This document shows, in pieces, positions 2,189 through 23,982 of a stretch of 39,689 nucleotides of DNA; the stretch's first letter is position 1; each line of letters starts with the position of its first letter. Origin of the DNA: Candidatus Woesearchaeota archaeon. Its GTDB lineage: Archaea > Nanobdellota > Nanobdellia > Pacearchaeales > GW2011-AR1. The translations under genes and the position numbers were made by a program. The notes under the pieces are model-generated. The model had not been told where the DNA came from. It did no database searches and saw only the letters and a program-made list of their open reading frames with translations. The stretch is from contig CAYWWB010000004.1 of assembly GCA_964462045.1 (NCBI GenBank), positions 1 to 39,689 on the forward strand, given 5' to 3'.

Positions 2189-2215
2189 TAAAAACTCTTT
2201 TTGTTTAATTTTTTT

Positions 2216-5200
2216 ATGAAAATGAAAAAAAGAGTGTTGAGTATTGTTTTTGTTTTTATTGTCATAATTTCTTTAATATTTTTTATTAAGGGATTTCAAA
2301 TTTCAAATACTTCATCACATTTTACTATTTCTTTAAGTGAAGAAAGATGGGAGAATATATCTGCTCCTGAAGGCGTTTTTGAACCTTCTAATCCTTCTTT
2401 ATTTGGAACACATATAAATCATTTTGAAATTGGTTTTGTTAATTTAAGTATTAGTTCAAATGAGGTTCTTGAATGTAAAATAAAAACATCTAATAAAAAT
2501 ATTCTTACTATAAATGAAACAGGTTTATCAAAATCAAATGAAAATTATACTTTAAGTTATTCAATAAAACAAACTGATTCAATAATAAAAGATTCTAATG
2601 TGGGATACATTCCCTGGGTTTTGGAAAATTGTTCTATTATTGATTCTTCTGAAAATATTGTTGATTTTCAAAATGTTTCAAGAAGGATTTATGTTCATGA
2701 TGATGAATATTGGGAAGACAATGAAGTTACAAGAGCAGTAACTTGTGAAGGGACTCCCCATGTTTATTTTAATAATACTGGAAAATGTGAGTTTTCTGAA
2801 GACACAATGTTTGCTTTACAGATGAGAAATGGTAATCCAGTAAATGAGACTTGCTTTAATAGTCCTGGTATTGCTTGTGCAGATTCTTATTGTAATGGTA
2901 TTTATTTCCCTACTTGTGATCCTGTAGATTATTTTTCAGGATTTAGTATTGAAGAAAAAGACCCAAATAATTATGCAGAAATAACTTCTAGTTTCGCAGG
3001 ATATAGTACTCCTATAGCTTTTACAAAATATACTAATTCAAGTGGAACCTTTAAATTAAGAGTTCTTGAATCTCTTTCAAGTAAATCTTTTTCAGTAACA
3101 TTATATAATTTAACAAATGTAGATGAATCAAATACAAATATTTACGGGCCTTCTTCTTCACAAGGAGATTTATCTATAACAAATCAAGGAGATGGAACCT
3201 ACACAGTTGCATTTTACAATTTCTCAGAATATTCAGGAACTTTAGATTTTACTTTTAATATTTCTTTTACTCAAGAAGGATTAAATGATAACAGGACAAT
3301 GAAAGTAGTTATAGCTTATGGAACAGACACTAATCAAGGAGATCCAGATTATTTTATTTCTTTATTAAACGAATCTGTAGGATTGTATAATAATGATGAA
3401 GGACAGATAACAGGAATAACAACTGATACAGGAGGTGTTTGTGGAGATGAAGCTAATAATGATTTTGATTATTTAGGAACTTTTAGTGGGAATGATGTAT
3501 GGGCTTGGAGTTATGATTGTTTTGATGAAGATTGTCATTTAATGCAAGGAGACGACTCTCAAACAAATGAATTTGGTTCTGGTAAAACAGGGTTGTGTAA
3601 TTATCAAACAGAATTAAATTGTTCAGATGAATTTGATAATGATTATGATTATGTTTATGATGGAAGTTCAAATCCTGGAGGAAATTTAGATTTTACAGAT
3701 TGCCATGATGCAGATTGTTTTCATAATGGGGATGGGTTAAATACTTGCCCGACAAAAGAGTTAATATGTAATGACTCTGTCAACAATGATTGGGATTATA
3801 CTCTTGGAGAATCAGATAATTCAGGAGATATGAAAATAGAAAATAATGGGACAAAATATGATTGGACACATCAATCTGATGTAACTGATTGTGAAGATAT
3901 TGATTGTGATGGTAAAATTGGGGGAAGTTCTGGAGAATTATGTAATTGGGGATATGAATTAAATTGTTCTGATAATTTTGATAATGATGCATTACAATTA
4001 AAAGATTGTGAATTAAATTCTGTAGGAAGCTCAACAGCGCAAGTTACTCCTGCTTATGCAGAATATGATTGTAGTTCTTTTTGTAGAAGTTCTGTAGAAA
4101 ATCATGAATCAGGAACACAATGTTTTGATAATATAGATAATGATTGGGATGCTATAACAATCAATGGATATTATAATGATAATTATGCAGATTATCATGA
4201 TGGAGGAATTGATTGTAGATGGGGGGGATATTTTGGAATAGGAAATAATTATAATCCAGAAGAAGAATGTAATTTATCTCTTAATTCCAACTTAAAAAGA
4301 TGTGAGCTTGGAAGAGAATTAACATGTAATGATAAATTTGATAATGATTTTGATAAAGATGCTAGTGGGATGCCCACACCAAAATGGAATTTAAACACAA
4401 GTCTCTATTTTGAGATTTTTGGTATTACTTATACATCTCATGGGGATTATGATGATTATGATTGTGCAAAAGAAAGTATTGTTCCTTCAAATGAAGCATT
4501 AAATGATTCGTGGTGTTTTGATGGTGTGGATAATGATTTAGATGCTTATTATTTTAGTGGGAATGGATACTCTCAAAACTCTTCAGGGGGATTTGATTGT
4601 GATGATACAGATTGTTTTGGAATAATAAACCCTGCAGATGAGGATGAAGCTTGCATTGATAGTGAGTATAATGCTTCTAATCCTTTATTTACGAATCTTC
4701 CTTTTCCTGGAAGATTCTGTGCAAATAATATAGATGATGACTCAGACGGACCTATTGATTGTGATGATTTGGATTGTTATAGGCAATTTACAATGTGTTC
4801 TCAAGGGCCTTGTTATAAAAAGGAAGATATAAGATGGGATTCTTGTGCAGATTCTATTGATAATGATAATACAAACGGGACTGATTGTGCAGATTCTGAT
4901 TGTTATGGATTATTTGGTTCAGAAGAAGGAGATTTTTGTGAACAAACAGAATCTAATTGTTTAGATGGATTTGATAATGATGCTGATGGAAATGCAGATT
5001 GTGCAGATTCTGATTGTTATGGGCTTGTAGGAGATTATAGGGATGGAGAAGTTTATTGTTCTTCAAATGAAAATACTTTAGATTTGTGTTATGATGGTTT
5101 TGATAATGATGCTGACGGAGTTTATGATTGCTATGAATCTGAATGTAATAGTTATTGTGAACTTTCAGATATTTCTGGAACAAACCCGATATCATTACCA

Positions 5201-7336
5201 GTTAATTTGGGAACAACAAGTCTTAATTCAGTTTCAGATGCATATATTAAAGATTATACAAAACAAGTAAGAAAAGGAGAATATTATAATTTAACTATGA
5301 AAATGGATTCTAGTTCTAGTGATGCTCAATGGACTTTGGGAACTGCAACAGGGGGAAGTTTCCAAAAATCATATTTTGATACTGGCACTGCTCAATTACA
5401 AGGACCTAATTCAGATAATTTTACTCTAACTGAAACTTCAGTTGGTTTTACAATAGAATCAAATGAAGCAGATTTGTCTTCAGGTTATGAAATGTCTTTT
5501 GTTATTCGAGCTAATTCTGTTATGTCTCAATCTACTTATGAATTAACTTATGCAGAATCAACTGGTTCAAAATTATCTTTAAATAATGATATTTATCATG
5601 AAATAAATGAAAATGTAAACCCTGAAGCCCAAAAAATAGAAATTATTCCCAATAATACCGGGATTAATTACGGAGATTCAGTATATTTGAGAGGAAATAT
5701 CTCTGATAATAACCAATTAGGAGTATGTCAGTGGGAGGTTTATGGACAAGCTTCTTTTAGTCCTTCGGATTCAACTAATTGTAAAGCTAGTTTTAGTCCA
5801 ACACAAGAAGGGACATATTATATTAATTTAACTCCAAAAGATTATTATTCTAATGAGGGAGATACAATCACAAAAGAATATGATTTGAATATAATCCCAA
5901 CTAAAAATGAAGCAGAATTGAATCAAACTTTCTACAATTCTACAATTGATACTTTAGAATTTAATTTTAGTTTTAATGTCCCTTCTGGAGATTCTTTAGG
6001 AAATTGTGAAATAATGATGAAAAATTCAACAAATGAATATTCAATGAAAAACATCTCTGCAACAGGAAATCTTTGTCAAGGAACAATTGATATTTCTTCA
6101 ATAAATGATGGAATGTACACTTTCTTTGCAAAAGTAAATGAAACAACTGAAGGAAATTTAATTTTAAGTAAAAGTGATTCTTCATTAATTTGTTCTCAAG
6201 TTGTAAATGGAACTTGTGTTTTTGCTGATTTTAATAATAATACTTATCCGGATATTTGTGTAAAAGACACTACCCCCCCTGAAATAACTTTAATTTCTCC
6301 AAATAATGAAACCTCCACAACCTCTCCTGCTAACTTTAAATACAGTGTTACGGATTCTACTGACATAGCAAATTGTAGTTTAATTATAGACGGATCAATT
6401 TCTGAAACAGACACATACATAACTAAAGAAACAGAACAACAATTTTCAGAAACATTCTCAACTGGAACTTATTCTTGGAAAATAAATTGTACAGATGAAG
6501 TTGGAAATATTGGTGAGTCAGAAACCAGAACAATAACTGTTAAAAAACCTACAACTGGACCTGGAGGCGGTGGAAGTGATACAGGTAGAGGCGGAATAAG
6601 TGGAGGCATAGCACCTTCTGAACCATCATATGAAAGTTTTTCAATAGATAAAGAAGAAATTAGAACAAGAGCATATACTAATGAAATAAAAACAGAAATG
6701 ATAGAAATAAAAAACACTAAAGAAGAGACAATTGAATTTAAAATAGAAAGTGATACTTCATTTGCACTTTTACCAAAAAATATTACTCTTGAACCTAATG
6801 AAACCAAAATTATTCCTGTAAAATTTTACTCTCCAAACAGAATAGGAAATTATTTTGGAAGTGTAACAGTAGAATCAGAGGATGGAAAGAAAGTAATTCC
6901 AATAAAACTTTCAGTAATGGCTCCCTCACTTTTAGAAATAGATACTCGTGTTTTAGATAAAAGTAAATTAGTTACTTTTGAAAAGGAAGTTTTTGCAAAC
7001 ATAACTATAAAAAATAAAGACGATTTAAAAAAGAATATCACTTTAACATATTTCATAAGAAGAAACGCACAAGAATTTAAAAACAAAACAGAGAATATTA
7101 TGTTAAATGCTGGTGAAGAAATAAGTATTGTGAGGGGACTTCCTAAAGAAAATACTTTCTTAATTAAAAAAGATTATTTTCAAACAGAAGTAAAATATTC
7201 CAAAACAACACTACATTCAGAAGATAATTTTATAATAATTAATTGGATAACTGCAATAATCACTCTAATTGTTTTAGGTGTTTTAATTTCTCTAATTATT
7301 ATAAAAATAAAAAAGAACGAAAAAAACGAGGAATAA
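2216..7336 (+). CDS. Giant (~1700 aa) Cys/Asp-rich surface protein: signal/anchor, 11 CxDxxDNDxD...DCxDxDC modules, Ig-like domain, Gly-rich linker, C-terminal TM anchor
   Basis: One uninterrupted 5.1 kb frame. The track start at 2201 is TTG; the first ATGs are at 2216 and 2222. N-terminal hydrophobic VLSIVFVFIVIISLIFFI; C-terminal TM WITAIITLIVLGVLISLIII followed by KIKKNEKNEE. Dozens of N-x-S/T sequons. Confidence 0.9.
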   Translation: MKMKKRVLSIVFVFIVIISLIFFIKGFQISNTSSHFTISLSEERWENISAPEGVFEPSNPSLFGTHINHFEIGFVNLSISSNEVLECKIKTSNKNILTINETGLSKSNENYTLSYSIKQTDSIIKDSNVGYIPWVLENCSIIDSSENIVDFQNVSRRIYVHDDEYWEDNEVTRAVTCEGTPHVYFNNTGKCEFSEDTMFALQMRNGNPVNETCFNSPGIACADSYCNGIYFPTCDPVDYFSGFSIEEKDPNNYAEITSSFAGYSTPIAFTKYTNSSGTFKLRVLESLSSKSFSVTLYNLTNVDESNTNIYGPSSSQGDLSITNQGDGTYTVAFYNFSEYSGTLDFTFNISFTQEGLNDNRTMKVVIAYGTDTNQGDPDYFISLLNESVGLYNNDEGQITGITTDTGGVCGDEANNDFDYLGTFSGNDVWAWSYDCFDEDCHLMQGDDSQTNEFGSGKTGLCNYQTELNCSDEFDNDYDYVYDGSSNPGGNLDFTDCHDADCFHNGDGLNTCPTKELICNDSVNNDWDYTLGESDNSGDMKIENNGTKYDWTHQSDVTDCEDIDCDGKIGGSSGELCNWGYELNCSDNFDNDALQLKDCELNSVGSSTAQVTPAYAEYDCSSFCRSSVENHESGTQCFDNIDNDWDAITINGYYNDNYADYHDGGIDCRWGGYFGIGNNYNPEEECNLSLNSNLKRCELGRELTCNDKFDNDFDKDASGMPTPKWNLNTSLYFEIFGITYTSHGDYDDYDCAKESIVPSNEALNDSWCFDGVDNDLDAYYFSGNGYSQNSSGGFDCDDTDCFGIINPADEDEACIDSEYNASNPLFTNLPFPGRFCANNIDDDSDGPIDCDDLDCYRQFTMCSQGPCYKKEDIRWDSCADSIDNDNTNGTDCADSDCYGLFGSEEGDFCEQTESNCLDGFDNDADGNADCADSDCYGLVGDYRDGEVYCSSNENTLDLCYDGFDNDADGVYDCYESECNSYCELSDISGTNPISLPVNLGTTSLNSVSDAYIKDYTKQVRKGEYYNLTMKMDSSSSDAQWTLGTATGGSFQKSYFDTGTAQLQGPNSDNFTLTETSVGFTIESNEADLSSGYEMSFVIRANSVMSQSTYELTYAESTGSKLSLNNDIYHEINENVNPEAQKIEIIPNNTGINYGDSVYLRGNISDNNQLGVCQWEVYGQASFSPSDSTNCKASFSPTQEGTYYINLTPKDYYSNEGDTITKEYDLNIIPTKNEAELNQTFYNSTIDTLEFNFSFNVPSGDSLGNCEIMMKNSTNEYSMKNISATGNLCQGTIDISSINDGMYTFFAKVNETTEGNLILSKSDSSLICSQVVNGTCVFADFNNNTYPDICVKDTTPPEITLISPNNETSTTSPANFKYSVTDSTDIANCSLIIDGSISETDTYITKETEQQFSETFSTGTYSWKINCTDEVGNIGESETRTITVKKPTTGPGGGGSDTGRGGISGGIAPSEPSYESFSIDKEEIRTRAYTNEIKTEMIEIKNTKEETIEFKIESDTSFALLPKNITLEPNETKIIPVKFYSPNRIGNYFGSVTVESEDGKKVIPIKLSVMAPSLLEIDTRVLDKSKLVTFEKEVFANITIKNKDDLKKNITLTYFIRRNAQEFKNKTENIMLNAGEEISIVRGLPKENTFLIKKDYFQTEVKYSKTTLHSEDNFIIINWITAIITLIVLGVLISLIIIKIKKNEKNEE
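3440..5158 (+). repeat. Intragenic array of about 11 Cys/Asp-rich metal-binding-like modules (thrombospondin type 3 / MopE-like DNDxDG motif)
   Basis: Module cores read from the translation: CGDEANNDFDY, CSDEFDNDYDY, CNDSVNNDWDY, CSDNFDNDALQ, CFDNIDNDWDA, CNDKFDNDFDK, CFDGVDNDLDA, CANNIDDDSDG, CADSIDNDNTNG, CLDGFDNDADG, CYDGFDNDADG. Most are followed by DCxDxDC. A 26-nt perfect DNA repeat gattgtgcagattctgattgttatgg occurs at 4883..4908 and 4997..5022. Confidence 0.8.
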
Positions 7337-12309: not shown

Positions 12310-12516
12310 ATGAAAATTTTTGTTAAATTACATCCAAGTTCTTCAAAAGAAGAAATAAAAAAACTTGAAGAATCTTTTTATGAAGTTTGGATTAAAGAAA
12401 AACCTCTTGAGAACCAAGCAAATAAGGCTCTTGAGAAAATTATGAAAAAGTATTTTAGAAAACCTGTTAAAATTGTTAGGGGTTTAAAATCCAAAAAGAA
12501 AATTTTAGAGATTTAG
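12310..12516 (+). CDS. DUF167 (YggU/UPF0235) family small protein
   Basis: 68 aa. Pattern V.V.P.S...I...E....V.I.E.P.EN.AN.AL...........V.I..G..SKKK.L.I is typical of DUF167. Follows the AEP gene by 1 nt. Confidence 0.6.
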   Translation: MKIFVKLHPSSSKEEIKKLEESFYEVWIKEKPLENQANKALEKIMKKYFRKPVKIVRGLKSKKKILEI

Positions 12517-13067
12517 ATATTGTGTCCGGGGCAAAGAATAGTGTAATCTATTGAATTAAGTTTTTCAAGAGAGTTTTCCATATCTTTTGGAGAACTTTCA
12601 AAAAAATCAGTTCTTCCTATACCATTATGAAAAAGAGTATCACCTGAAAATAAAATCCCTTTTTCCCCATAATATATGCATATACTTCCTGGGGTGTGTC
12701 CAGGAGTTTTAATTATTTTTAATTCAGGGAAATTTTTTCTTACTTCTTCTGCTTTTTTTATTTCAGGAAATTTTTCTTCAGGAAAATCTTTTTTACTTGC
12801 GTAAATTTTGAGGTTTTTATTTTTTATTTTAAACAAATCCAAATTACCCAAATGGTCCCAATGATTATGTGTTAAGATTAATTTATTGATATCTGAAGGC
12901 TTTAAATTTATCTCTTCAAGTCCTGAAATAAGTTCTTCTTGGTTATTGTAAGAAGTTGTATCTATTAGTATATATTCTCCCCTTATTTTTAATAAATAGA
13001 CACTTGAGCCAAAAAATCTAAAATTTAGTTCCCAAACATTGTCTTGGTTTTCAATTCTTTTTATCAT
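12513..13067 (-). CDS. MBL-fold metallo-hydrolase (glyoxalase II-like)
   Basis: HxHxDH motif THNHWDH, then TPGHTPGS, SGDTLF and CPGH ligand motifs. The start is moved to the ATG at 13067 (MIKRIENQ...), which removes the overlap with the divergent gene at 13124. Confidence 0.85.
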   Translation of the reverse strand: MIKRIENQDNVWELNFRFFGSSVYLLKIRGEYILIDTTSYNNQEELISGLEEINLKPSDINKLILTHNHWDHLGNLDLFKIKNKNLKIYASKKDFPEEKFPEIKKAEEVRKNFPELKIIKTPGHTPGSICIYYGEKGILFSGDTLFHNGIGRTDFFESSPKDMENSLEKLNSIDYTILCPGHNI

Positions 13068-13123
13068 ATTAAAACAAAAGGAATATTTTATATAAGATTT
13101 ACTCTTGAAGTTTTTAGAAGAAA

Positions 13124-13522
13124 ATGAAATATGAATTTGCTCCGGATTTGCAAACACTTGCAGAAGAAATTTGTTTATTATTATTTCCTCACATAAAAAT
13201 AACAAAAATAAAATGTTTTAGAAGTTATGGGAGTTCTACAAAAAGGACAATTGCAAGATGCCATACTTTGGGAAAGATAATGCAAATGGCTATAGGGGTT
13301 GAAGCATATTATGCAATAGAAGTTCTTTCTGAAAAATTTGATAAGCTTTCTGAAAAAGACAAAGTGAAAACAATAATTCATGAGTTAATGCATATACCAA
13401 AAGCTTTTGGGGGTGGATTCAGACATCATGACTGGGTTACTAATAAAAATGTAAATAAGATGTATAAAACTTACAAAGCTAAAAAAGAAGAAAGAAAAAA
13501 GATAAATAATTGGTTTCAATAA
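13124..13522 (+). CDS. Predicted small Zn-metallopeptidase (HExxH; SprT/COG4900-like)
   Basis: HELMH motif in IIHELMHIPKAFGGGFRHHD, with basic N- and C-terminal parts. Confidence 0.6.
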   Translation: MKYEFAPDLQTLAEEICLLLFPHIKITKIKCFRSYGSSTKRTIARCHTLGKIMQMAIGVEAYYAIEVLSEKFDKLSEKDKVKTIIHELMHIPKAFGGGFRHHDWVTNKNVNKMYKTYKAKKEERKKINNWFQ

Positions 13523-17809: not shown

Positions 17810-18961
17810 CTAATAAGGAGCTTCAGCTCCGAAAAGTTCCCAAAGCCAGTTTATGAATCTTTGAAACCAATTAAGTTCCCTATCATCTTCTGATACATCT
17901 ACTTCTGTTGTCTTTGGTTCGTATTGTTTTTTGTAAATTTTATGTTCATAACTTTCTTCTTCATCATCTTCATCATCTTCTGAAAGACTTGGATTGATTT
18001 TGAAATCTACACTTTTATTATTTTCATTACCATTTGAATCAGTTGCATAAATTGTTAATGTGTAATTTCCTTTATCTAATACTATTGAATCATCATATGA
18101 ACTAACAAATCCAGCAGTCAAAGATCTTCTTGAAATTCTTTGAGTACCATTTAATTCATATTCTAATTCTGCTGATTCATCTGTAGATATAGTTATGTTT
18201 ATTTGATTAACTTCATATTCTTCTCCATCTATTGGTGAATCAATTGTAATTTCTGGAGCAGTTGTATCAACATCTGGTAATGTATTTACTGTAAATGTAA
18301 CACTATCACTTCCTTCATTTCCATTAACATCAGTTGCATAAACTGTTAAAGAGTTTGAACCTTCTTGAGTAGTTATTGTAAAAGGACTATTACACCCTGA
18401 AATTGTTTGTCTGCTTCCACCATTAAGAACATATTCACAAGTATCTATTCCTTCATTATCAGTAGCATCAAACCCAACTGTAACATCAGTTGAATCTAAT
18501 GTTTCTCCATTACTTGGAGAATTTATTGTTACTTGAGGAGCTTCATTATCTTCTCCTTTTACTGTTAAAGATAATTCGTTTGATATAGATGTTGAACCAT
18601 CTTTTAATTCTACATATAAAGTTAGTGTATGTTCTCCTACAGAAGTTGTTTTTCCTATAGTAACATCATTTTGATAATATAAAGAACCCCCTGCAGCAGA
18701 ATTTTGTTCAAACCCTGAATTCCATGTTCTAACTGGAGTTCCGTCTATCCTTAATGAAACTTCTTTTATTTCAGAAACATCATATGTAAGAACTTCAAAA
18801 TCTACTTGAGTGTTTTTTCCTTCAGTTATAGTTCCTGAAAATCCTGAATCATATTGTAAGTTAGTGTCTATATTAGCAGCTTGAATAAATCCTAAAGAGA
18901 TAACTAAAGCTAAGAAAATCATTAATACTCTTCCAGCCTTATTAAAATTATTTTGTGTCAT
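17810..18961 (-). CDS. Secreted protein with tandem Ig-like domains, acidic linker and amphipathic Trp-rich C-terminus
   Basis: Signal peptide RVLMIFLALVISLGFIQA. Repeats APQVTINSPSNGETL...TVYATDVNGNEGSDSVTFTVN and APEITIDSPIDGEEY...TIYATDSNGNENNKSVDFKIN resemble PPEITLISPNNE...CTDEVGNIGESETRTITV of the giant protein. C-terminus NWFQRFINWLWELFG. Confidence 0.8.
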   Translation of the reverse strand: MTQNNFNKAGRVLMIFLALVISLGFIQAANIDTNLQYDSGFSGTITEGKNTQVDFEVLTYDVSEIKEVSLRIDGTPVRTWNSGFEQNSAAGGSLYYQNDVTIGKTTSVGEHTLTLYVELKDGSTSISNELSLTVKGEDNEAPQVTINSPSNGETLDSTDVTVGFDATDNEGIDTCEYVLNGGSRQTISGCNSPFTITTQEGSNSLTVYATDVNGNEGSDSVTFTVNTLPDVDTTAPEITIDSPIDGEEYEVNQINITISTDESAELEYELNGTQRISRRSLTAGFVSSYDDSIVLDKGNYTLTIYATDSNGNENNKSVDFKINPSLSEDDEDDEEESYEHKIYKKQYEPKTTEVDVSEDDRELNWFQRFINWLWELFGAEAPY

Positions 18962-18962
18962 T

Positions 18963-20411
18963 TTATCTGTTTAAATACCAATTTATTCCTAAACCATATT
19001 TAAAATCTCCAGATTTGCTTTTTTCTCCAAGCCCGGTTTCATATTTTACATTTCCTTCTACTGAAAAACTACTATTATCTTTTCCAGGAAAATACTCTAT
19101 TCCTGCAGAACCTGTAAAAGTAACTTCTTTTCCTAAATTTTTAATATAATTATCTCCTTCTCCATTACCTATCTCAAGTCTTGTTGAATCAACCACATTT
19201 CCATTTGCGTCTTCTGATATTATGTCTGTTGATATCTCCCCTTCATATTGTTGTTTAACATTTCTATAAGTCAATCCAACTTTTCCCTCCAATCCAAAAC
19301 TGTTTGAAATCATTCCGTTAAAACTAATTCCTGCTCCCCATTCATAATTTTGATACATAGGAGTTTTAGTAACATCTTTATTAGTTATAGCATATCTAGT
19401 TGTATCTCCTTCTTTATATAGAGGTTCTTTTTCTTGTTGAAGACTTTCATTTGTAGGTTTTCCTAAATTCCATGTATTATTTTGGTTCCCTATATTATAT
19501 GATATAAAAGGCCCTATTGAAAGATTTTCACTTCCAAATCCCAATGTAAAAGAAGCTTGTCCATAAAGATTGTCTCCAGCTACTACCCCATCAACATCTA
19601 ATTTTGGTTGGAACCAGCTTAAATCAAAATTCCTATTTCCACTTCTCTTCTTACTTTTATCATCATAAGGAGAATAAAAATTATCTTCTTCTACTTCAAC
19701 AATTCCTTGAACTTCACCAGTTGTAGGTTCTATTAAGTCATATTTTTTGGGATAATCTGAGTTTAAAATTCCTTCAAGATTTCCTCTTGATTTTTCTTTA
19801 TCAACTTTCCATCCCCAAATTTCATCAGTTTGAACATAATAGTTTTCTCTGTTGTCTGTTACACCAATTTCTTGAACATCATCTTTGTATGCCCAAACAA
19901 CATTTTGTTTTTCTCCATTTCCTGAAGGTTGGTGAAAATAATAAACTGTATCATTTATTCCGTCACTTCCTTTTATAACGAGTGTCTTAAATAAATTTGA
20001 GAAATCTTTTGTTTTAATTTCTAATTTATCTCCTTGAAAATCTAAGTTTTTTGTATCATATTGAGGAGTAGCATCTTCTGGTTTTTTTGCAAATTGACCA
20101 GAATTATTTAATATAATTCTATTTCCTTCAATTTCATAAGGAGAAAATACAACACTAGGTTTATTACCATTCATTTTACTAACAGGATATTTTTCAATTC
20201 CCAAAGGATTATCTCTTGATTCTTTAATTTCTTTAAAAGCGTAAACAGTTCCATGTTCCATGATAGCTTCTTGAGTTTCACTACTTCCCACAGAACCAGA
20301 TTGAGTAAAATCAACATCTTGAGCTTTAACATTAGGTGATAAAGCTGTAAGAGCTGCTAATCCTAAACCTCCTAAAAGGCTTTTGAATTTGTTTGTTTTT
20401 TTGTTTGTCAT
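18963..20411 (-). CDS. Secreted 482-aa protein whose C-terminal half looks like a transmembrane beta-barrel (OMP-like)
   Basis: Signal peptide FKSLLGGLGLAALTALSPNVKA/QD. C-terminal half has alternating Gly/aromatic-rich strands: YGQASFTLGFGSENLSIGPFISYNIG, YEWGAGISFNGMISNSFGLEGKVGLTYRN, VTFTGSAGIEYFPGKDNSSFSVEGNVKYETG, and terminal FKYGLGINWYLNR. Confidence 0.75.
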   Translation of the reverse strand: MTNKKTNKFKSLLGGLGLAALTALSPNVKAQDVDFTQSGSVGSSETQEAIMEHGTVYAFKEIKESRDNPLGIEKYPVSKMNGNKPSVVFSPYEIEGNRIILNNSGQFAKKPEDATPQYDTKNLDFQGDKLEIKTKDFSNLFKTLVIKGSDGINDTVYYFHQPSGNGEKQNVVWAYKDDVQEIGVTDNRENYYVQTDEIWGWKVDKEKSRGNLEGILNSDYPKKYDLIEPTTGEVQGIVEVEEDNFYSPYDDKSKKRSGNRNFDLSWFQPKLDVDGVVAGDNLYGQASFTLGFGSENLSIGPFISYNIGNQNNTWNLGKPTNESLQQEKEPLYKEGDTTRYAITNKDVTKTPMYQNYEWGAGISFNGMISNSFGLEGKVGLTYRNVKQQYEGEISTDIISEDANGNVVDSTRLEIGNGEGDNYIKNLGKEVTFTGSAGIEYFPGKDNSSFSVEGNVKYETGLGEKSKSGDFKYGLGINWYLNR

Positions 20412-20726
20412 TTTTATTGTTTTTTTGAATTTTTTAATCTTTATAAACCTTTTGGTTTGTTGTTATTGAAAGGTTTAAACACTTTTGTGTTATTGTAAAA
20501 TAGTTAATTACAACTACTTTATAAATTTTTCGGTTTTTAACTATGATTAAGTAAAAACAAAATTTCAGAGTTTTTTCGAATATAAAAATATTTGTATTAT
20601 TTAAGATATGTGTTTTTGTCGTCAATAAAAAAATAAAAAGAAAGATAAATTCATTGGGTGTCATCAGGAAATCAAAAAAAGGAAAACATTTTCTGGAAGG
20701 GTTGTTTTGTAGTATATTAATTAGGG

Positions 20727-20916
20727 GGTTCTCGTTTCATTTGGATTTCTTTTAGGAAATACGGATGAATGGAAATCTCTGATTTACTTTTTGTCTAATC
20801 TTTTTTTGAAAAAGATCTTCATGGTAGGTTCTCGTTTCATTTGGATTTCTTTTAGGAAATACGGATGAATGGAAATCTCTGATTTACTTTTTGTCTAATC
20901 TTTTTTTGAAAAAGAT
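20727..20916. repeat. Two perfect 90-bp direct copies (20727..20816, 20827..20916) separated by a 10-nt spacer
   Basis: ggttctcgtttcatttggatttcttttaggaaatacggatgaatggaaatctctgatttactttttgtctaatctttttttgaaaaagat occurs twice with a period of exactly 100 nt. Each copy ends in the palindrome atcttttt..aaaaagat. Confidence 0.95.
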
Positions 20917-20930
20917 TATTTGAAAGATAC

Positions 20931-20949
20931 ATGCGCGAGCCGGGATTCG
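20931..20949 (-). other. Orphan 19-nt copy of the tRNA-Gly 3' end (T-loop to discriminator, plus 1 nt); att-like scar
   Basis: atgcgcgagccgggattcg at 20931..20949 is identical to 21036..21054 in the intact tRNA-Gly, in the same orientation, 87 nt downstream of the gene. Confidence 0.85.
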
Positions 20950-21036
20950 TGCGAAAAGCAAGTTTTCGCGTCATTCGCTAAAATCAAAGATTTTATCAAA
21001 TGAAACTCCGTTCGAATCCCCTATTTTTTTGCAGAA

Positions 21037-21107
21037 TGCGCGAGCCGGGATTCGAACCCGGGCCACATCGTTGGCAACGACGCATTCTACCACTGAACTA
21101 CTCACGC
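21037..21107 (-). tRNA. tRNA-Gly(GCC)
   Basis: Minus strand reads GCGTGAG-TA-GTTC-AGTGGTA-GAAT-G-CGTCG-TTGCCAA-CGATG-TGGC-CCGGG-TTCGAAT-CCCGG-CTCGCGC-A. Full cloverleaf, anticodon GCC, no encoded CCA, no intron. Confidence 0.95.
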
Positions 21108-21126
21108 TTTTTAATAATAAAAGAGA

Positions 21127-21756
21127 TTATTTGGTTTTTTTAAAATATTCTAATAAAGAAATATATGTCTTAGGATTTTTAGAATGTAATTCTCCTTTGT
21201 CCCAAGGGATATTAGATGTTTTTAAAATTCCATCTGCATTTACATTTCTTATTAATGTATTATAATTACTAATGTTTTCTTTTGTTAAAAAATATGCTGA
21301 ACCTTTAACCCCTTTTGGAATTTCTGCTAAATAAACTTGTATTTTTTTGTCATGCAAGTCATTTACAATATTTTGAAGTGATTTTTTTATTTTATAATCT
21401 GGTGCCCACCTACTATTAGTTCCTTCAAAAAGAATAATCTTATTTGAATTTACTTTTTTTAATTCAGAAATTACACTAGGCAATTCATTTTCAATATTAA
21501 AAATTGTTCTTCCCTCATATGAAAATTTATCGCAGTTTTCACACCCCATCATATCTGAATTAGTGATATCACTATCTTCAATAATAATATTTTCTAATTT
21601 TTGGTTGTTTTTTGTTAAATAATTATTCAAAGCAACTATATGTGAATTTCCAAGAACAACAGCGGGTGAGATTTTTTTTGTTTGTTGAGAATGTAAATTA
21701 TAATTAATACCTAGTGTCAAGGTTAATGCGAGCAGTGTGTTTGCTATCTTTCCCAT
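21127..21756 (-). CDS. Secreted 209-aa protein (weak SGNH/GDSL-hydrolase-like resemblance) lying between two tRNA genes
   Basis: Signal peptide MGKIANTLLALTLTLGINYNLHS. VVLGNSHIV and ILFEGTNS are loosely reminiscent of SGNH blocks I and III. The ATG is 2 nt after the tRNA-Val 3' end; the stop is 19 nt before the tRNA-Gly 5' end. Confidence 0.65.
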   Translation of the reverse strand: MGKIANTLLALTLTLGINYNLHSQQTKKISPAVVLGNSHIVALNNYLTKNNQKLENIIIEDSDITNSDMMGCENCDKFSYEGRTIFNIENELPSVISELKKVNSNKIILFEGTNSRWAPDYKIKKSLQNIVNDLHDKKIQVYLAEIPKGVKGSAYFLTKENISNYNTLIRNVNADGILKTSNIPWDKGELHSKNPKTYISLLEYFKKTK

Positions 21757-21758
21757 AA

Positions 21759-21831
21759 TGGACCCGGCAGGAATCGAACCTGCGATCTTCTCGGTGTAAA
21801 CGAGATGTCATAACCCCTAGACCACGGGTCC
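21759..21831 (-). tRNA. tRNA-Val(UAC)
   Basis: Minus strand reads GGACCCG-TG-GTCT-AGGGGTTA-TGAC-A-TCTCG-TTTACAC-CGAGA-AGATC-GCAGG-TTCGATT-CCTGC-CGGGTCC-A. Anticodon TAC, no encoded CCA, no intron. Confidence 0.95.
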
Positions 21832-22025
21832 ATGTTTTTGTTAGACCCGTTCAAAAAACCTTTTGGTTTTTAGTTGTTTCGTCTTTCCATCATTTGAAGC
21901 GGAAATCCAAAACAGACCACGGGTCCATGTTTTTGTTAGACCCGTTCAAAAAACCTTTTGGTTTTTAGTTGTTTCGTCTTTCCATCATTTGAAGCGGAAA
22001 TCCAAAACAGACCACGGGTCCATGT
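21819..22025. repeat. Perfect 95-bp tandem repeat (2 full units plus a 17-nt third copy) that includes the first 13 nt of tRNA-Val and its upstream leader
   Basis: Units at 21819..21913 and 21914..22008, partial copy at 22009..22025. Each starts with agaccacgggtccatgt, the reverse complement of acat+GGACCCGTGGTCT. Confidence 0.95.
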
Positions 22026-22140
22026 GTTTTTTATTAAATATTTAATAAAGTTGTAACTTTTAAAGTTTTTCTTTATAAAAAAAGTTATCTAAAAGATAGT
22101 GATAACAACATTTAAAAATAAAAAGTAATTTATTTAATGC

Positions 22141-23982
22141 ATGGTTAACGATAAAAATAAAATTCCTGGAATGGAATTAAATGACACTAAAAAATATTCT
22201 AATTCTCAAACTTCAACATCTCCAGAAAATAATCCTAATGGTTCTGTTTCGCAAGGAAATTCTCAACAAAACGAAGAACAAAAAAAAGAAAATGAAAGAA
22301 TAAAAAAGATAATGGAAAAATTAAAAAGCACTATTTTAGAAAAATATTCTTTTATCCAATCAATAAGTATTTTGCCTCCTCAATCAATTAAAGTTTTCAT
22401 AGATGAAGAAGAAGTCCCAAAAGAAACTGAAAAACACCACCACCTAAATATAGTTGTTCCAGATAAAAAAGAAAAAAAATTGCCTGAAATAAAGAAAGAC
22501 ATTGTAAAAGAAATTGAAAAAACTAAAGAGTATATTTGGTTACATTTAAGGACCCCTCAAGAAATATGGGGAATTTGTTTGGATTCAAAATTTGAAATTT
22601 TTAGTGCTATTGCTATGTCATATCCATTATATGATAAAGGAATTTTAGGAGCTATGAGGGTCACAGAAATCCATAAATCAATGGTTTTACAAAAATTTGA
22701 CAAATATGTTGTTTCTTATGTTTTAGGCGGAAGTATGATAAGAGGAGAAGCAAAAAAAACTTCTGATATTGATGTTTTCTTAATTATTAATGATACTGAT
22801 GTTAAAAGAATGCCTCGTTTGGAATTAAAAGAAAGATTAAGAGGAATGATTTATCAATATGTTAGTGAAGCTATGGGAATGGCTGGAGTTAAAATGCAGT
22901 TAGAACCTCAGATTTATTTATTAACTGATTTCTGGGAAGCAATGAAAGATGCTCACCCAGTAATGTTTACTTTCATTAGAGATGGTGTTCCAATTTATGA
23001 TAGAGGAACTTTCATGCCTTGGAAATCTTTATTAAATATGGGTAAACTTAAACCAAGTCCTGAAGCTATTGATATGTTTATGTCTATGGGAGACAATACA
23101 AGAAAAAGAATTGAAAGGGCGCAATTAGATTTAGTTGTAGGAGATATTTATTGGGGAACCATAACTCCGAGCCAGGCTTTATTAATGCTTTATGGAGTTG
23201 CACCTCCTTCGCCAAAGCAAGTTGTTCCTGAAATGAAAAAAATATTTGTTGAAAAAGAAAAAATGCTTGAAAAAAAATATATTGACATCCTAGAAAAAAT
23301 TGTTATTAAATATTATAAGGGGTATGAGCACGGGAAAGTAAAGAAAGTTTCAGGTAAAGAAGTTGATATGCTTTTAGAGGAAATGGAAGAATACAATAAA
23401 AGAATGAAAGAGTTAAGAAAACAAATTGAAAAAAGAACCGATGAAAGAACCATTGAACAATTCTACAAAGATGTTTTTGAATTATTGAAATCAATTTTAG
23501 GGAATAAAGCAAAAGAAAAAATAGTTGAAGAATTTAATAAAAAAATGGTAAAAACAGGAAAATTTTCTCCCCAACATTTGAGGATTTTAAAGAACATTGT
23601 TAAAGCAAGAGAAGAATTCAAAAAAGGGAAACTTGATACTCATAGAGTTCATCAAGCAAGAAGAGAATCTAGAACCCTTATTAATGATTTAATAGAATAT
23701 TCTCAAAGATGTGAATTAATGCCTTTAGAAAAAGGGAGATTTTATTTGAAATATAAAGAGAAAGGCAAGGAAAAAAATGCTGAATTATTAAGTTACAATG
23801 GAAAAGCATTTTTATTAAAACAAAATGAAATCAAGAAAATAACAAACAAAATTGAAGAATCAAATCTTGAAGAAATTAATAAAGAGGCTGAAAAACAAAA
23901 AAGTAAAAAGGAAATTGAATTAAAACCAGAAGTATTTAAATTAATAAAGAAAGAACTTGGAAATTATGAAATTGTTCTTTGA
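22141..23982 (+). CDS. Large (613 aa) Pol-beta-superfamily nucleotidyltransferase-domain protein with helical C-terminal extension
   Basis: NTase signature LGGSMIRGEAKKTSDIDVFLIIND. The downstream helical block GKLKPSPEAIDMF...YWGTITPSQALLMLYGVAPPSPKQVVPEM is paralogous to ORF 26780..27742. Long Lys/Glu-rich coiled tail. Confidence 0.8.
   Translation: MVNDKNKIPGMELNDTKKYSNSQTSTSPENNPNGSVSQGNSQQNEEQKKENERIKKIMEKLKSTILEKYSFIQSISILPPQSIKVFIDEEEVPKETEKHHHLNIVVPDKKEKKLPEIKKDIVKEIEKTKEYIWLHLRTPQEIWGICLDSKFEIFSAIAMSYPLYDKGILGAMRVTEIHKSMVLQKFDKYVVSYVLGGSMIRGEAKKTSDIDVFLIINDTDVKRMPRLELKERLRGMIYQYVSEAMGMAGVKMQLEPQIYLLTDFWEAMKDAHPVMFTFIRDGVPIYDRGTFMPWKSLLNMGKLKPSPEAIDMFMSMGDNTRKRIERAQLDLVVGDIYWGTITPSQALLMLYGVAPPSPKQVVPEMKKIFVEKEKMLEKKYIDILEKIVIKYYKGYEHGKVKKVSGKEVDMLLEEMEEYNKRMKELRKQIEKRTDERTIEQFYKDVFELLKSILGNKAKEKIVEEFNKKMVKTGKFSPQHLRILKNIVKAREEFKKGKLDTHRVHQARRESRTLINDLIEYSQRCELMPLEKGRFYLKYKEKGKEKNAELLSYNGKAFLLKQNEIKKITNKIEESNLEEINKEAEKQKSKKEIELKPEVFKLIKKELGNYEIVL

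Follow-up and report, generated by a model that had tools for sequence, protein, structure and literature searches.

What supplies the promoter and the 5′ end of an mRNA when the start codon of its gene lies two nucleotides behind a tRNA? The question is raised by a locus in an A+T-rich archaeal stretch of 39,689 nt (contig CAYWWB010000004.1; GC 28.8%), which is called the window throughout this text. On the minus strand of the window, tRNA-Val(UAC), the dinucleotide UU, a 209-codon open reading frame (ORF), a 19-nt spacer and tRNA-Gly(GCC) follow one another in this order. From the features described below we propose, with moderate confidence, that the ORF, a probable esterase gene, would be co-transcribed from the promoter of tRNA-Val, and that tRNase Z would make its leaderless-type mRNA.

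The anatomy of the locus is established to the base. The tRNA-Val gene (21759..21831, minus strand) is 73 nt long, has no encoded CCA and ends with the discriminator A at 21759; the tRNA-Gly gene (21037..21107, minus strand) is 71 nt long and also lacks an encoded CCA. Each scored 68.4 bits in Rfam (RF00005 for tRNA-Val) and was found by ARAGORN, and at the gathering threshold Rfam recognised only these two tRNAs in the whole window. The ORF occupies 21127..21756 (minus strand), with its ATG at 21756-21754 and its TAA at 21129-21127. The UU dinucleotide at 21757..21758 (minus strand) fills the gap between discriminator and AUG and would be the mRNA 5′ end after a tRNase Z cut, and the A/T-rich spacer TCTCTTTTATTATTAAAAA (21108..21126, minus strand) separates the stop codon from G1 of tRNA-Gly at 21107. 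The junction reads ...CGGGTCC-A(21759)-TT-ATG(21756), exactly as a first-pass annotation of this DNA had placed it; the positions that it gave for the stop codon and the 19-nt spacer were confirmed by the sequence as well. ARAGORN agreed on the anticodons UAC and GCC, but set tRNA-Val off by one base with respect to Rfam; the register common to Rfam and the first-pass annotation retains U8 and the discriminator A73 at 21759.

The start codon had also been chosen rightly. Read upstream in frame, the DNA reaches a TGA inside tRNA-Val without passing another ATG, GTG or TTG; downstream, codon 69 is the first further Met, and it falls past the conserved GNSH motif of the protein. The 37 nt preceding the ATG are the G+C-rich T-arm and acceptor stem of tRNA-Val. 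We found the tRNA-Val/TT/ATG junction in the independent assemblies L001, L002 and L003 (the numbers L001-L095 denote related contigs or loci, of which L005-L083 form the set of related loci), and a TT-ATG junction behind tRNA-Val is present, with an unrelated gene, in L018 too. L001, a Logan contig, ends within the A and B repeats described further below and is hence uninformative on the transcript ends.

That the ORF is a real gene is established by its length and its conservation. As computed from base composition, the chance of a 209-codon open frame at 28.8% GC is ~2e-8. Its pairwise dN/dS is 0.17-0.27, which indicates purifying selection. Close homologues are rare: only three were present among 5.8 billion clustered proteins, two of them with genomic context, namely L002 (82% identity) and L003 (73% identity). 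Both belong to related metagenome-assembled genomes (MAGs) of Pacearchaeota/Woesearchaeota, and both keep the order tRNA-Val, TT, ATG...stop, tRNA-Gly. The first-pass annotation had suggested a check of this synteny and had named a lack of conservation as grounds for giving up its reading; the order and the constraint on the codons both speak for a conserved gene. An exhaustive HMMER search gave 17 representative homologues at 50% identity, a small family. One homologue, 39% identical and located on another archaeal contig, has its own TATA at −31..−22 and no tRNA nearby.

Pfam and NCBIfam models gave no match to the ORF, and a weak precomputed Lipase_GDSL_2 match was seen only on its homologue P0006. 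The function was assigned only via profile and fold searches. A profile search of Protein Data Bank (PDB) sequences with the ORF family matched the GDSL lipolytic protein 7ddy (9e-5). The AlphaFold (AF2) model of the product, with a mean predicted local distance difference test (pLDDT) value of 87.6, has the three-layer alpha/beta/alpha flavodoxin-like architecture of SGNH enzymes; it gave 60 Foldseek matches in the PDB at E <= 1e-3, mostly SGNH/GDSL esterases, with template-modelling (TM) scores of 0.5-0.63. Acetyl-xylan esterases and GDSL lipases were the best matches, and PatB-type enzymes matched too. The sequence blocks of the family agree with this fold. Block I is GNSH at residues 36-39, conserved in the family alignment and carrying a nucleophile Ser in a G-x-S setting; block III is EGTNS (EGxNS in the family) at residues 111-115, with G112 and S115 invariant and N114 nearly invariant; and H191 of block V is invariant. 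The product therefore shares with known SGNH/GDSL hydrolases (acetyl-xylan esterases, GDSL lipases and PatB-type O-acetyl transferases/esterases) the fold and the Ser, Gly-Asn and His motifs, whereas its block I reads GNSH rather than GDSL, the family does not conserve the Asp that a DxxH motif would place three residues ahead of the His, and Pfam and NCBIfam models are silent. A signal-peptide-like segment is present at the N-terminus of the ORF and of family members, in keeping with the secreted type of protein that had been predicted. Judged from these motifs and the modelled fold, the ORF product is a divergent SGNH/GDSL hydrolase and is probably secreted. We also observed its SGNH-like domain as the C-terminal domain of very large proteins from other metagenomic organisms (P0004, 911 aa; P0007, 603 aa; P0009, 2394 aa).

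How genes are normally expressed in this lineage was read from the window and its relatives. The window encodes L10e, Kae1 and other archaeal markers, and its nearest relatives are MAGs labelled Woesearchaeota, Pacearchaeota or Nanoarchaeota. We gathered 80 syntenic loci (~784 kb of related DNA) via a neighbour that is transcribed divergently from tRNA-Val, a 613-aa protein with a nucleotidyltransferase domain (NTP_transf_2; 22141-23982, plus strand), whose adjoining position is kept lineage-wide (L004-L083). Upstream of 99 tRNAs there is a positioned A-rich/TTT/AAA signal at −38..−26 of G1, with a conserved A at −2, and most tRNAs of the lineage appear to be started individually, a few nucleotides from G1. 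For 363 ORFs of at least 200 aa from the 80 loci, a B recognition element (BRE)/TATA signal is found at −36..−22 of the ATG, and Shine–Dalgarno (SD)-like motifs are hardly enriched upstream (34 versus 21 in the control). A BRE/TATA signal at this distance, together with the scarcity of SD motifs, means that the mRNAs of the lineage appear to be predominantly leaderless, as judged from promoter geometry rather than from mapped transcription start sites.

This geometry, which is an observed property of the lineage, is missing ahead of the window ORF. With a fixed-position promoter position weight matrix (PWM), 50% of ordinary genes exceed the random 95th percentile, compared with none of 11 ORFs that abut a tRNA. 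The −37..−20 segment of the window ORF, CGAGAAGATCGCAGGTT, is tRNA T-arm sequence and stands at the 35th percentile of random; even the best PWM score within +/-12 nt stays below the random 95th percentile, and the same is true of all 11 abutting ORFs. No SD-like motif precedes the window ORF. The earlier statement that a TATA box or SD has no room between tRNA-Val and the ORF was thus well founded, and the lack of signals for a promoter or SD is itself an observation. Read most simply, these upstream sequences point to a gene whose own promoter was lost or never existed, and which would rely on transcription entering through tRNA-Val.

The arrangement is not peculiar to the window, and its recurrence in relatives is likewise established. 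Across the 80 syntenic loci, tRNA-Val(UAC), often with tRNA-Gly(GCC) next to it, is an old feature of the neighbourhood; the Val-Gly gap is 6-73 nt without an ORF in several genomes and is filled by an ORF in others. Behind 11 of 57 tRNA-Val genes, and behind none of 42 other tRNAs, the discriminator is followed after 2-11 nt by the ATG of an ORF of at least 70 aa, the rate at random positions being 3.9% (Fisher p 0.002; binomial p 0.013 with the window clade counted once). The tRNA-to-ORF distances are bimodal, being either 2-11 nt or at least 33 nt, plus one case at 21 nt, and the longer class is the one with room for a promoter of the ORF's own. The abutting genes are mutually unrelated: TatD, TspO, DUF7670, DUF218, HD-domain and serine hydrolase (Ser_hydrolase) genes and two small membrane proteins. 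Six of the eight abutting ORFs in relatives have a Pfam domain, and because the alignments begin at residues 1-25 (four of them at 1-14), the predicted start codons are right. In L018 the TatD gene begins 2 nt past tRNA-Val, and its stop codon lies 10 nt before tRNA-Gly. L082 also has an ORF between two tRNAs, the second of which is an intron-containing tRNA that Rfam finds and ARAGORN misses. Long tRNAs of 136-141 nt, seen by Rfam and not by ARAGORN, occur in L022 (3900-4040, minus strand) and L082 (3710-3845, plus strand); the one in L022 is a tRNA-Gly(GCC) with an intron of ~70 nt, and in this locus 33-nt tandem repeats with a TATA-like motif precede both tRNA-Val and the intron-bearing tRNA-Gly.

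A promoter that could serve tRNA-Val was sought with a PWM built from 93 tRNA upstream regions of relatives. The strongest BRE/TATA-like box of the region, AGAAAAACTTTAAAAG (22057..22072, minus strand; PWM 6.8, top percentile of random positions), is kept in L002 and L003 and lies upstream of a repeat array and tRNA-Val. The promoter-like box nearest to tRNA-Val, CCAAAAGGTTTTTTGA (21851..21866, minus strand), falls within repeat unit A2 and reaches the 97th percentile of a best-of-15 null. Whether transcription is driven from the A2 box or from the 22072..22057 box is uncertain, but with both the promoter precedes the tRNA.

We envisage that tRNA-Val(UAC) and the SGNH-esterase gene would form one transcription unit driven from upstream of tRNA-Val. 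In archaea, the 3′ end of a tRNA is normally cut after the discriminator by tRNase Z, and since tRNA-Val has no encoded CCA, its 3′ end must come from an endonucleolytic cut after A73. This cut at 21759 would release tRNA-Val, which would then gain CCA, and would at the same time yield an mRNA starting 5′-P-UUAUG, to be translated via the leaderless pathway that is the apparent default of the lineage. In Haloferax volcanii an mRNA with a 0-5-nt leader still counts as leaderless, and 72% of mRNAs are of this kind (PMC4983044); the predicted UU leader, with no SD, falls in the same class provided that the tRNase Z cut occurs. In Saccharolobus solfataricus the 5′-triphosphate of a leaderless mRNA mimics base −1, and with a 5′-monophosphate initiation complexes still form, at an intermediate level and with intermediate stability (PMC11698992). 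The two real bases (UU) before the AUG could fill the role of base −1 here. The idea of the first-pass annotation that tRNA 3′ processing would leave an mRNA with a 2-nt leader is thus a plausible one for a translatable mRNA, given the leaderless default of the lineage and the recurrence of the layout behind tRNA-Val. Co-transcription, the tRNase Z cut and the translation of the processed RNA are what we infer from the sequence features of the locus.

At the other end of the ORF the situation is different. A promoter-like box for tRNA-Gly, TAGAATATTTTAAAAA (21137..21152, minus strand), is located within the last codons of the ORF (...EYFKK). It has a PWM score of 5.8, at the 99.9th percentile for a single position and the 96th percentile of the best-of-15 null, and is kept in L002 and L003. 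It stands 6 nt further from G1 than the norm, and the predicted start is accordingly ~6 nt upstream of the usual one. The tRNA-Gly of L018, L031, L048, L066 and L010 also has a box, at the canonical offset, which falls within coding sequence wherever the spacer leaves no room for it; in L018 it is embedded in the last codons of the upstream gene (ENYKNLFE). In relatives without an intervening ORF, tRNA-Val and tRNA-Gly are mostly promoted separately, with spacers of 39-73 nt. The tRNA-Val/tRNA-Gly spacer of L050 (2897-3044, minus strand) is only 6 nt, which leaves no place for a tRNA-Gly promoter there and requires 5′ processing from a dicistron; to judge from this spacer, the lineage can process linked tRNAs.

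Because tRNA-Gly has a promoter-like box of its own, a tRNA-mRNA-tRNA precursor is not required. The first-pass annotation had postulated such a single precursor. Its tRNA-Val/ORF part is supported by the lack of a promoter and SD of the ORF's own, the reality of the gene, the leaderless habit of the lineage and the recurrence of the layout, while the obligatory inclusion of tRNA-Gly is not supported. Nor is the corollary that an RNase P cut defines the mRNA 3′ end, for tRNA-Gly has the box TAGAATATTTTAAAAA and all other cases of an ORF between tRNA-Val and tRNA-Gly are alike in this respect. We suggest that the tRNA-Gly of the window would be made mainly from its own promoter overlapping the last codons of the ORF, and that it is better described as an independently promoted neighbour than as required punctuation. 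Some read-through from the ORF may occur, and any such transcript could be trimmed at tRNA-Gly.

Several observations weigh against the proposed expression of the ORF through tRNA-Val. The tRNA-Val promoter of this clade is atypical: the A2 box stands 4 nt too near to G1 by the standard of the lineage, and one has to go ~190 nt upstream, past two repeat units that each contain a T6 run, to reach the best box. An mRNA with the 5′-monophosphate which the cut would leave may be a poor or short-lived template. In L003, a single in-frame TGG->TAG change at ~6346-6348 splits the esterase gene into ORFs of 115 aa and 76 aa. The codons past the TAG are still constrained (dN/dS ~0.22), which makes the TAG a recent lesion or an error rather than the mark of an old pseudogene; on its sequence, the gene is dispensable in at least one relative. 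Neither a tRNase Z gene nor an RNase P gene or RNA was found in the 39.7-kb window by Rfam and ORF domain scans, and the sole metallo-beta-lactamase encoded there (12513..13205) resembles the glyoxalase II type, not RNase Z. Moreover, the abutting ORFs were sampled at one conserved locus, and their enrichment concerns tRNA-Val at this site, not tRNAs generally. In the stretch from a tRNA to its abutting ORF, T-runs were not depleted (T >= 4 in 27% versus 38%; p = 0.74), and L040 has T6 ahead of its abutting ORF; T-runs are, however, uninformative in a lineage of 29% GC, and the window ORF itself holds a T6.

Four other explanations deserve to be weighed against tRNase Z processing of a tRNA-Val/ORF transcript. 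One of them retains the mitochondria-style scheme in full, with one tRNA-Val/mRNA/tRNA-Gly precursor whose mRNA 3′ end is made by RNase P at G1 of tRNA-Gly. The three genes do share a strand and an order kept in L002 and L003, with a spacer of just 19 nt; the stop codon of L018 is only 10 nt from tRNA-Gly, and the 6-nt spacer of L050 demands co-transcription and 5′ processing at that locus. Against this, a tRNA-Gly box at about the lineage-typical distance is present in every such sandwich, embedded in coding sequence where necessary, and the fixed distance of tRNA promoters with the conserved A at −2 suggests individual tRNA starts; we regard this scheme as unlikely. The alternative that transcription begins at or just before the ATG, from a non-canonical promoter inside tRNA-Val, would make the mRNA an ordinary primary leaderless transcript. 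Leaderless mRNAs beginning at the A of the ATG are the norm in the lineage, and promoters internal to archaeal genes are reportedly known. The low rank of CGAGAAGATCGCAGGTT, the failure of all 11 abutting ORFs to rise above the random 95th percentile, and the difficulty of evolving a TATA box within constrained tRNA sequence leave this explanation only a slim chance. A slimmer one still belongs to the possibility that the ORF is translated from the unprocessed tRNA-mRNA chimera, the tRNA serving as a structured 5′ untranslated region (UTR) and tRNase Z merely competing. A tRNA or a tRNA half as 5′ UTR has been reported in Thermococcus kodakarensis (PMC4247193) and Nanoarchaeum equitans (PMC3491384), but here no SD-like sequence is present, the AUG is 2 nt from a stable acceptor helix, and SD-led initiation is rare in the lineage.

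The layout could also be a by-product of gene capture at a tRNA-Val/tRNA-Gly integration hotspot, the esterase gene being expressed poorly or not at all and decaying. Both tRNAs have copies of tRNA ends on their flanks, partial duplicates of this sort are common among relatives, and the Val-Gly gap is occupied by unrelated genes in different lineages, with tRNA-Val and tRNA-Gly side by side in many relatives; tRNA genes are also the commonest integration targets in archaea (PMC4158269), and the premature stop in L003 would fit with decay. The dN/dS values of 0.17-0.27, and of 0.22 past the L003 stop, indicate instead a functional, expressed gene. No tRNA-Val 3′ repeat is found downstream of the ORF, no integrase is recognisable in the window, and a spacing confined to 2-11 nt in 9 independent cases looks like the product of selection rather than of chance. 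We consider capture without expression improbable; as an account of origin, capture is compatible with the expression of the ORF through tRNA-Val.

Comparable arrangements are known elsewhere. In animal mitochondrial DNA, RNase P and RNase Z/ELAC2 excise the tRNAs and free mRNAs with 0-3-nt leaders. The window locus has in common with this system a tRNA abutting the start codon (2 nt away, as in L002, L003 and L018), a passenger gene without a promoter, an mRNA 5′ end that would follow from tRNA 3′ processing, and a leaderless message with no SD. It differs in that mitochondria use a genome-wide polycistron, whereas here the tRNAs have their own promoters and tRNA-Gly is apparently independent, one locus per genome is seen, always at tRNA-Val, and the cleavage is a predicted one. 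In E. coli (Escherichia coli), the tRNAs and the mRNA of thrU-tyrU-glyT-thrT-tufB share a promoter and are separated by RNase processing; this mRNA, in contrast, keeps an SD leader, and the enzymes are RNase E and RNase P with exonucleolytic 3′ trimming.

Among archaea, N. equitans offers the closest parallels. Its tRNA-Val(TAC) is directly followed by C/D sRNA8, whose 5′ end was proposed to come from an RNase Z cut (PMC3491384), and the 5′ half of its tRNA-His forms the 5′ UTR of valRS (Randau 2012, PMC3491384). Common to tRNA-Val-sRNA8 and the window locus are the DPANN affiliation, the Val UAC isoacceptor, a downstream RNA without a promoter and the proposed RNase Z 5′ end; as in the dicistronic tRNA-X transcripts of N. 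equitans and plants, the second member stands right after the discriminator of a tRNA that has no encoded CCA. The difference is that the passenger in N. equitans is a guide RNA rather than an mRNA and that the tRNA half of valRS stays in the UTR; neither was described as a source of leaderless mRNA. In T. kodakarensis, tRNA-Lys lies within the 159-nt 5′ UTR of TK0306 (PMC4247193). This is again an archaeal tRNA co-transcribed with a downstream protein gene, but with a long leader that has room for an SD, no abutting start codon, and in an organism with only ~14% leaderless mRNAs. In H. volcanii, RNase P and tRNase Z also cut t-elements, which resemble tRNAs in structure and occur, for instance, ahead of 5S rRNA (PMC4326828). 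There, too, tRNA-processing enzymes set the ends of a neighbour that is not a tRNA, and the acceptor-like closing stem of the A units described below is reminiscent of them; the element adjoining the ORF here is, by contrast, a bona fide tRNA, and the A units do not score as tRNA-like in Rfam. A literature search turned up no account of mRNAs punctuated by tRNAs in archaea.

The first-pass annotation had missed that both tRNAs are flanked by structured repeats carrying tRNA ends. Upstream of tRNA-Val (21832-22021, minus strand), two 85-nt units of 100% identity, A1 (21937..22021, minus strand) and A2 (21842..21926, minus strand), form an array with a 95-nt period, as found by Tandem Repeats Finder (TRF) and a repeat search. 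A1 is followed by a 10-nt spacer and is matched by covariance model (CM) R1 at 1.2e-12, and A2 is separated from tRNA-Val by ACAAAAACAT. Each A unit opens with tRNA-Val positions 1-13 and continues with hairpin 1, then hairpin 2 and its T6 run, and lastly CGGGTCTA; this terminal sequence is complementary to the unit's own 5′ end, giving an acceptor-like closing stem of 7-8 bp with two hairpins in a three-way-junction fold (z-score −5.3). L002 and L003 have one A copy each, with compensatory changes. Element C (20932..21036, minus strand; family D5 of the repeat search, with a predicted fold) directly follows tRNA-Gly. It comprises a 16-nt linker, GGGATTCG, the two hairpins 1 and 2 and, last, the final 18 nt of tRNA-Gly copied without a mismatch (20949..20932). 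The GGGATTCG segment is an inverted copy of the T-loop region, an 8-bp closing stem is formed by GGGATTCG/CGAATCCC, and the hairpin-1 core is that of the A units. Two tandem 100-nt B units (20727..20926, plus strand; TRF and repeat search) have this hairpin-1 core as well; they are on the opposite strand, adjoin no tRNA and converge on element C. CM R1 recovers these B units, on which it was not trained, at 20733-20771 and 20833-20871 (E = 4e-4). In a comparison of five sequences, 98.7% of hairpin 1 is paired, and at four pairs both partners have changed.

C-type homologues of ~100 nt, each opening with the T-loop region in inverted copy and ending with an exact 17-20-nt copy of the 3′ end of its own host tRNA, are found after tRNA-Gly in L003 (6718-6835) and after tRNA-Ser(GGA) in L011 (1125-1223, minus strand), L093 and L095 (4800-5056); in L011 and L095 the repeat is 17-18 nt of the tRNA-Ser 3′ end, and the tandem copy number varies between strains. 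Over the 784 kb of related loci, CM R1 found the hairpin-1 family confined to the window clade and L011. A metagenome scan for the C-type core returned 14 stretches, of which only L093 and L095 (L011 lineage) are real relatives, the others being rejected as chance matches; scans of viral contigs for A-type and C-type cores gave nothing or a chance match in a G+C-rich contig. When 20650-22140 was compared with Rfam at E <= 10, the A, B and C units fell into no family, tRNA included; of the features of a t-element, the A units have only the acceptor-like closing stem and two hairpins. By eye, the A and C units were also rejected as C/D box, H/ACA or K-turn RNAs: a CUGA box is missing, the internal loop measures only 2x2 nt, and L002 does not keep the tandem G.A.

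Site-specific integration classically leaves direct repeats of which a part of a tRNA is one component (PMC4158269). Here element C is bounded by the 18-nt tRNA-Gly 3′ end and the A units by ~24 nt (leader plus tRNA-Val positions 1-13). The A and C elements are only 85-105 nt long, and no integrase domain, next to them or elsewhere, was recognisable among the scanned window ORFs. Partial duplicates of 12-24 nt of tRNA 3′ or 5′ ends, 56-333 nt from the intact tRNA, are common in related genomes, downstream in L009, L010, L065, L078 and L083 and upstream in L027 (2770-2970) and L048. In L027 a truncated tRNA-Val copy is broken by inserts, and the insert motif GGGATGACCTCTT[C/T]GAGGCC recurs in the element of L065. 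The A, B and C units are candidate miniature derivatives of tRNA-targeting integrative elements, which would also explain the varied genes in the Val-Gly gap, or candidate tRNA-end-mimicking RNA modules. They bear on the expression of the ORF only by blurring the position of the tRNA-Val promoter.

Some further features of the window were recorded. The 613-aa protein has no NCBIfam assignment, and in contrast to most genes of the lineage, ~55-70 nt separate its annotated ATG from the TATA-like boxes closest to it. Large predicted surface or secreted proteins include one of 1711 aa with Ig-like matches (2201-7336, plus strand) and one of 383 aa with Big_7/Y_Y_Y domains (17810-18961, minus strand). 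The latter, and a predicted surface or secreted protein of 482 aa that has a signal peptide but belongs to no family (18963-20411, minus strand), are syntenic in L002 and L003.

Relative to the systems compared above, what is probably new, as far as these genomes can tell, is that a genuine tRNA would supply both the promoter and the 5′-end maturation of a leaderless mRNA, recurrently and with unrelated genes, in one DPANN lineage. A bolder proposal, possible and still rather doubtful to us, is that tRNA-Val(UAC) is in routine use among DPANN archaea of the Pacearchaeota type as a 5′ cassette that brings the promoter, with tRNase Z making leaderless mRNAs for any gene that lands behind it. This would be a free-living counterpart of mitochondrial punctuation, arisen independently at least 6 times at one locus, and the A, B and C units would be a family of miniature elements not described before, mobile or concerned with processing, which have tRNA termini as their target and assist the shuffling of genes into the slot.

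If the proposed expression of the ORF through tRNA-Val is true, genes of this kind would be misjudged by gene callers and promoter-based operon predictors, and the locus, reduced to a tRNA, two bases and a reporter, would be a simple system for asking whether archaeal ribosomes accept 5′-monophosphate near-leaderless mRNAs in vivo. The 3′ processing of a tRNA could then serve, in cellular organisms and not just in organelles, as the normal route to leaderless mRNAs fit for translation. Three traits of reduced archaeal genomes would be tied together, namely tRNA promoters at a fixed distance, translation without leaders and shrinking intergenic DNA, and it would be clear how a gene can lose its promoter without being silenced.

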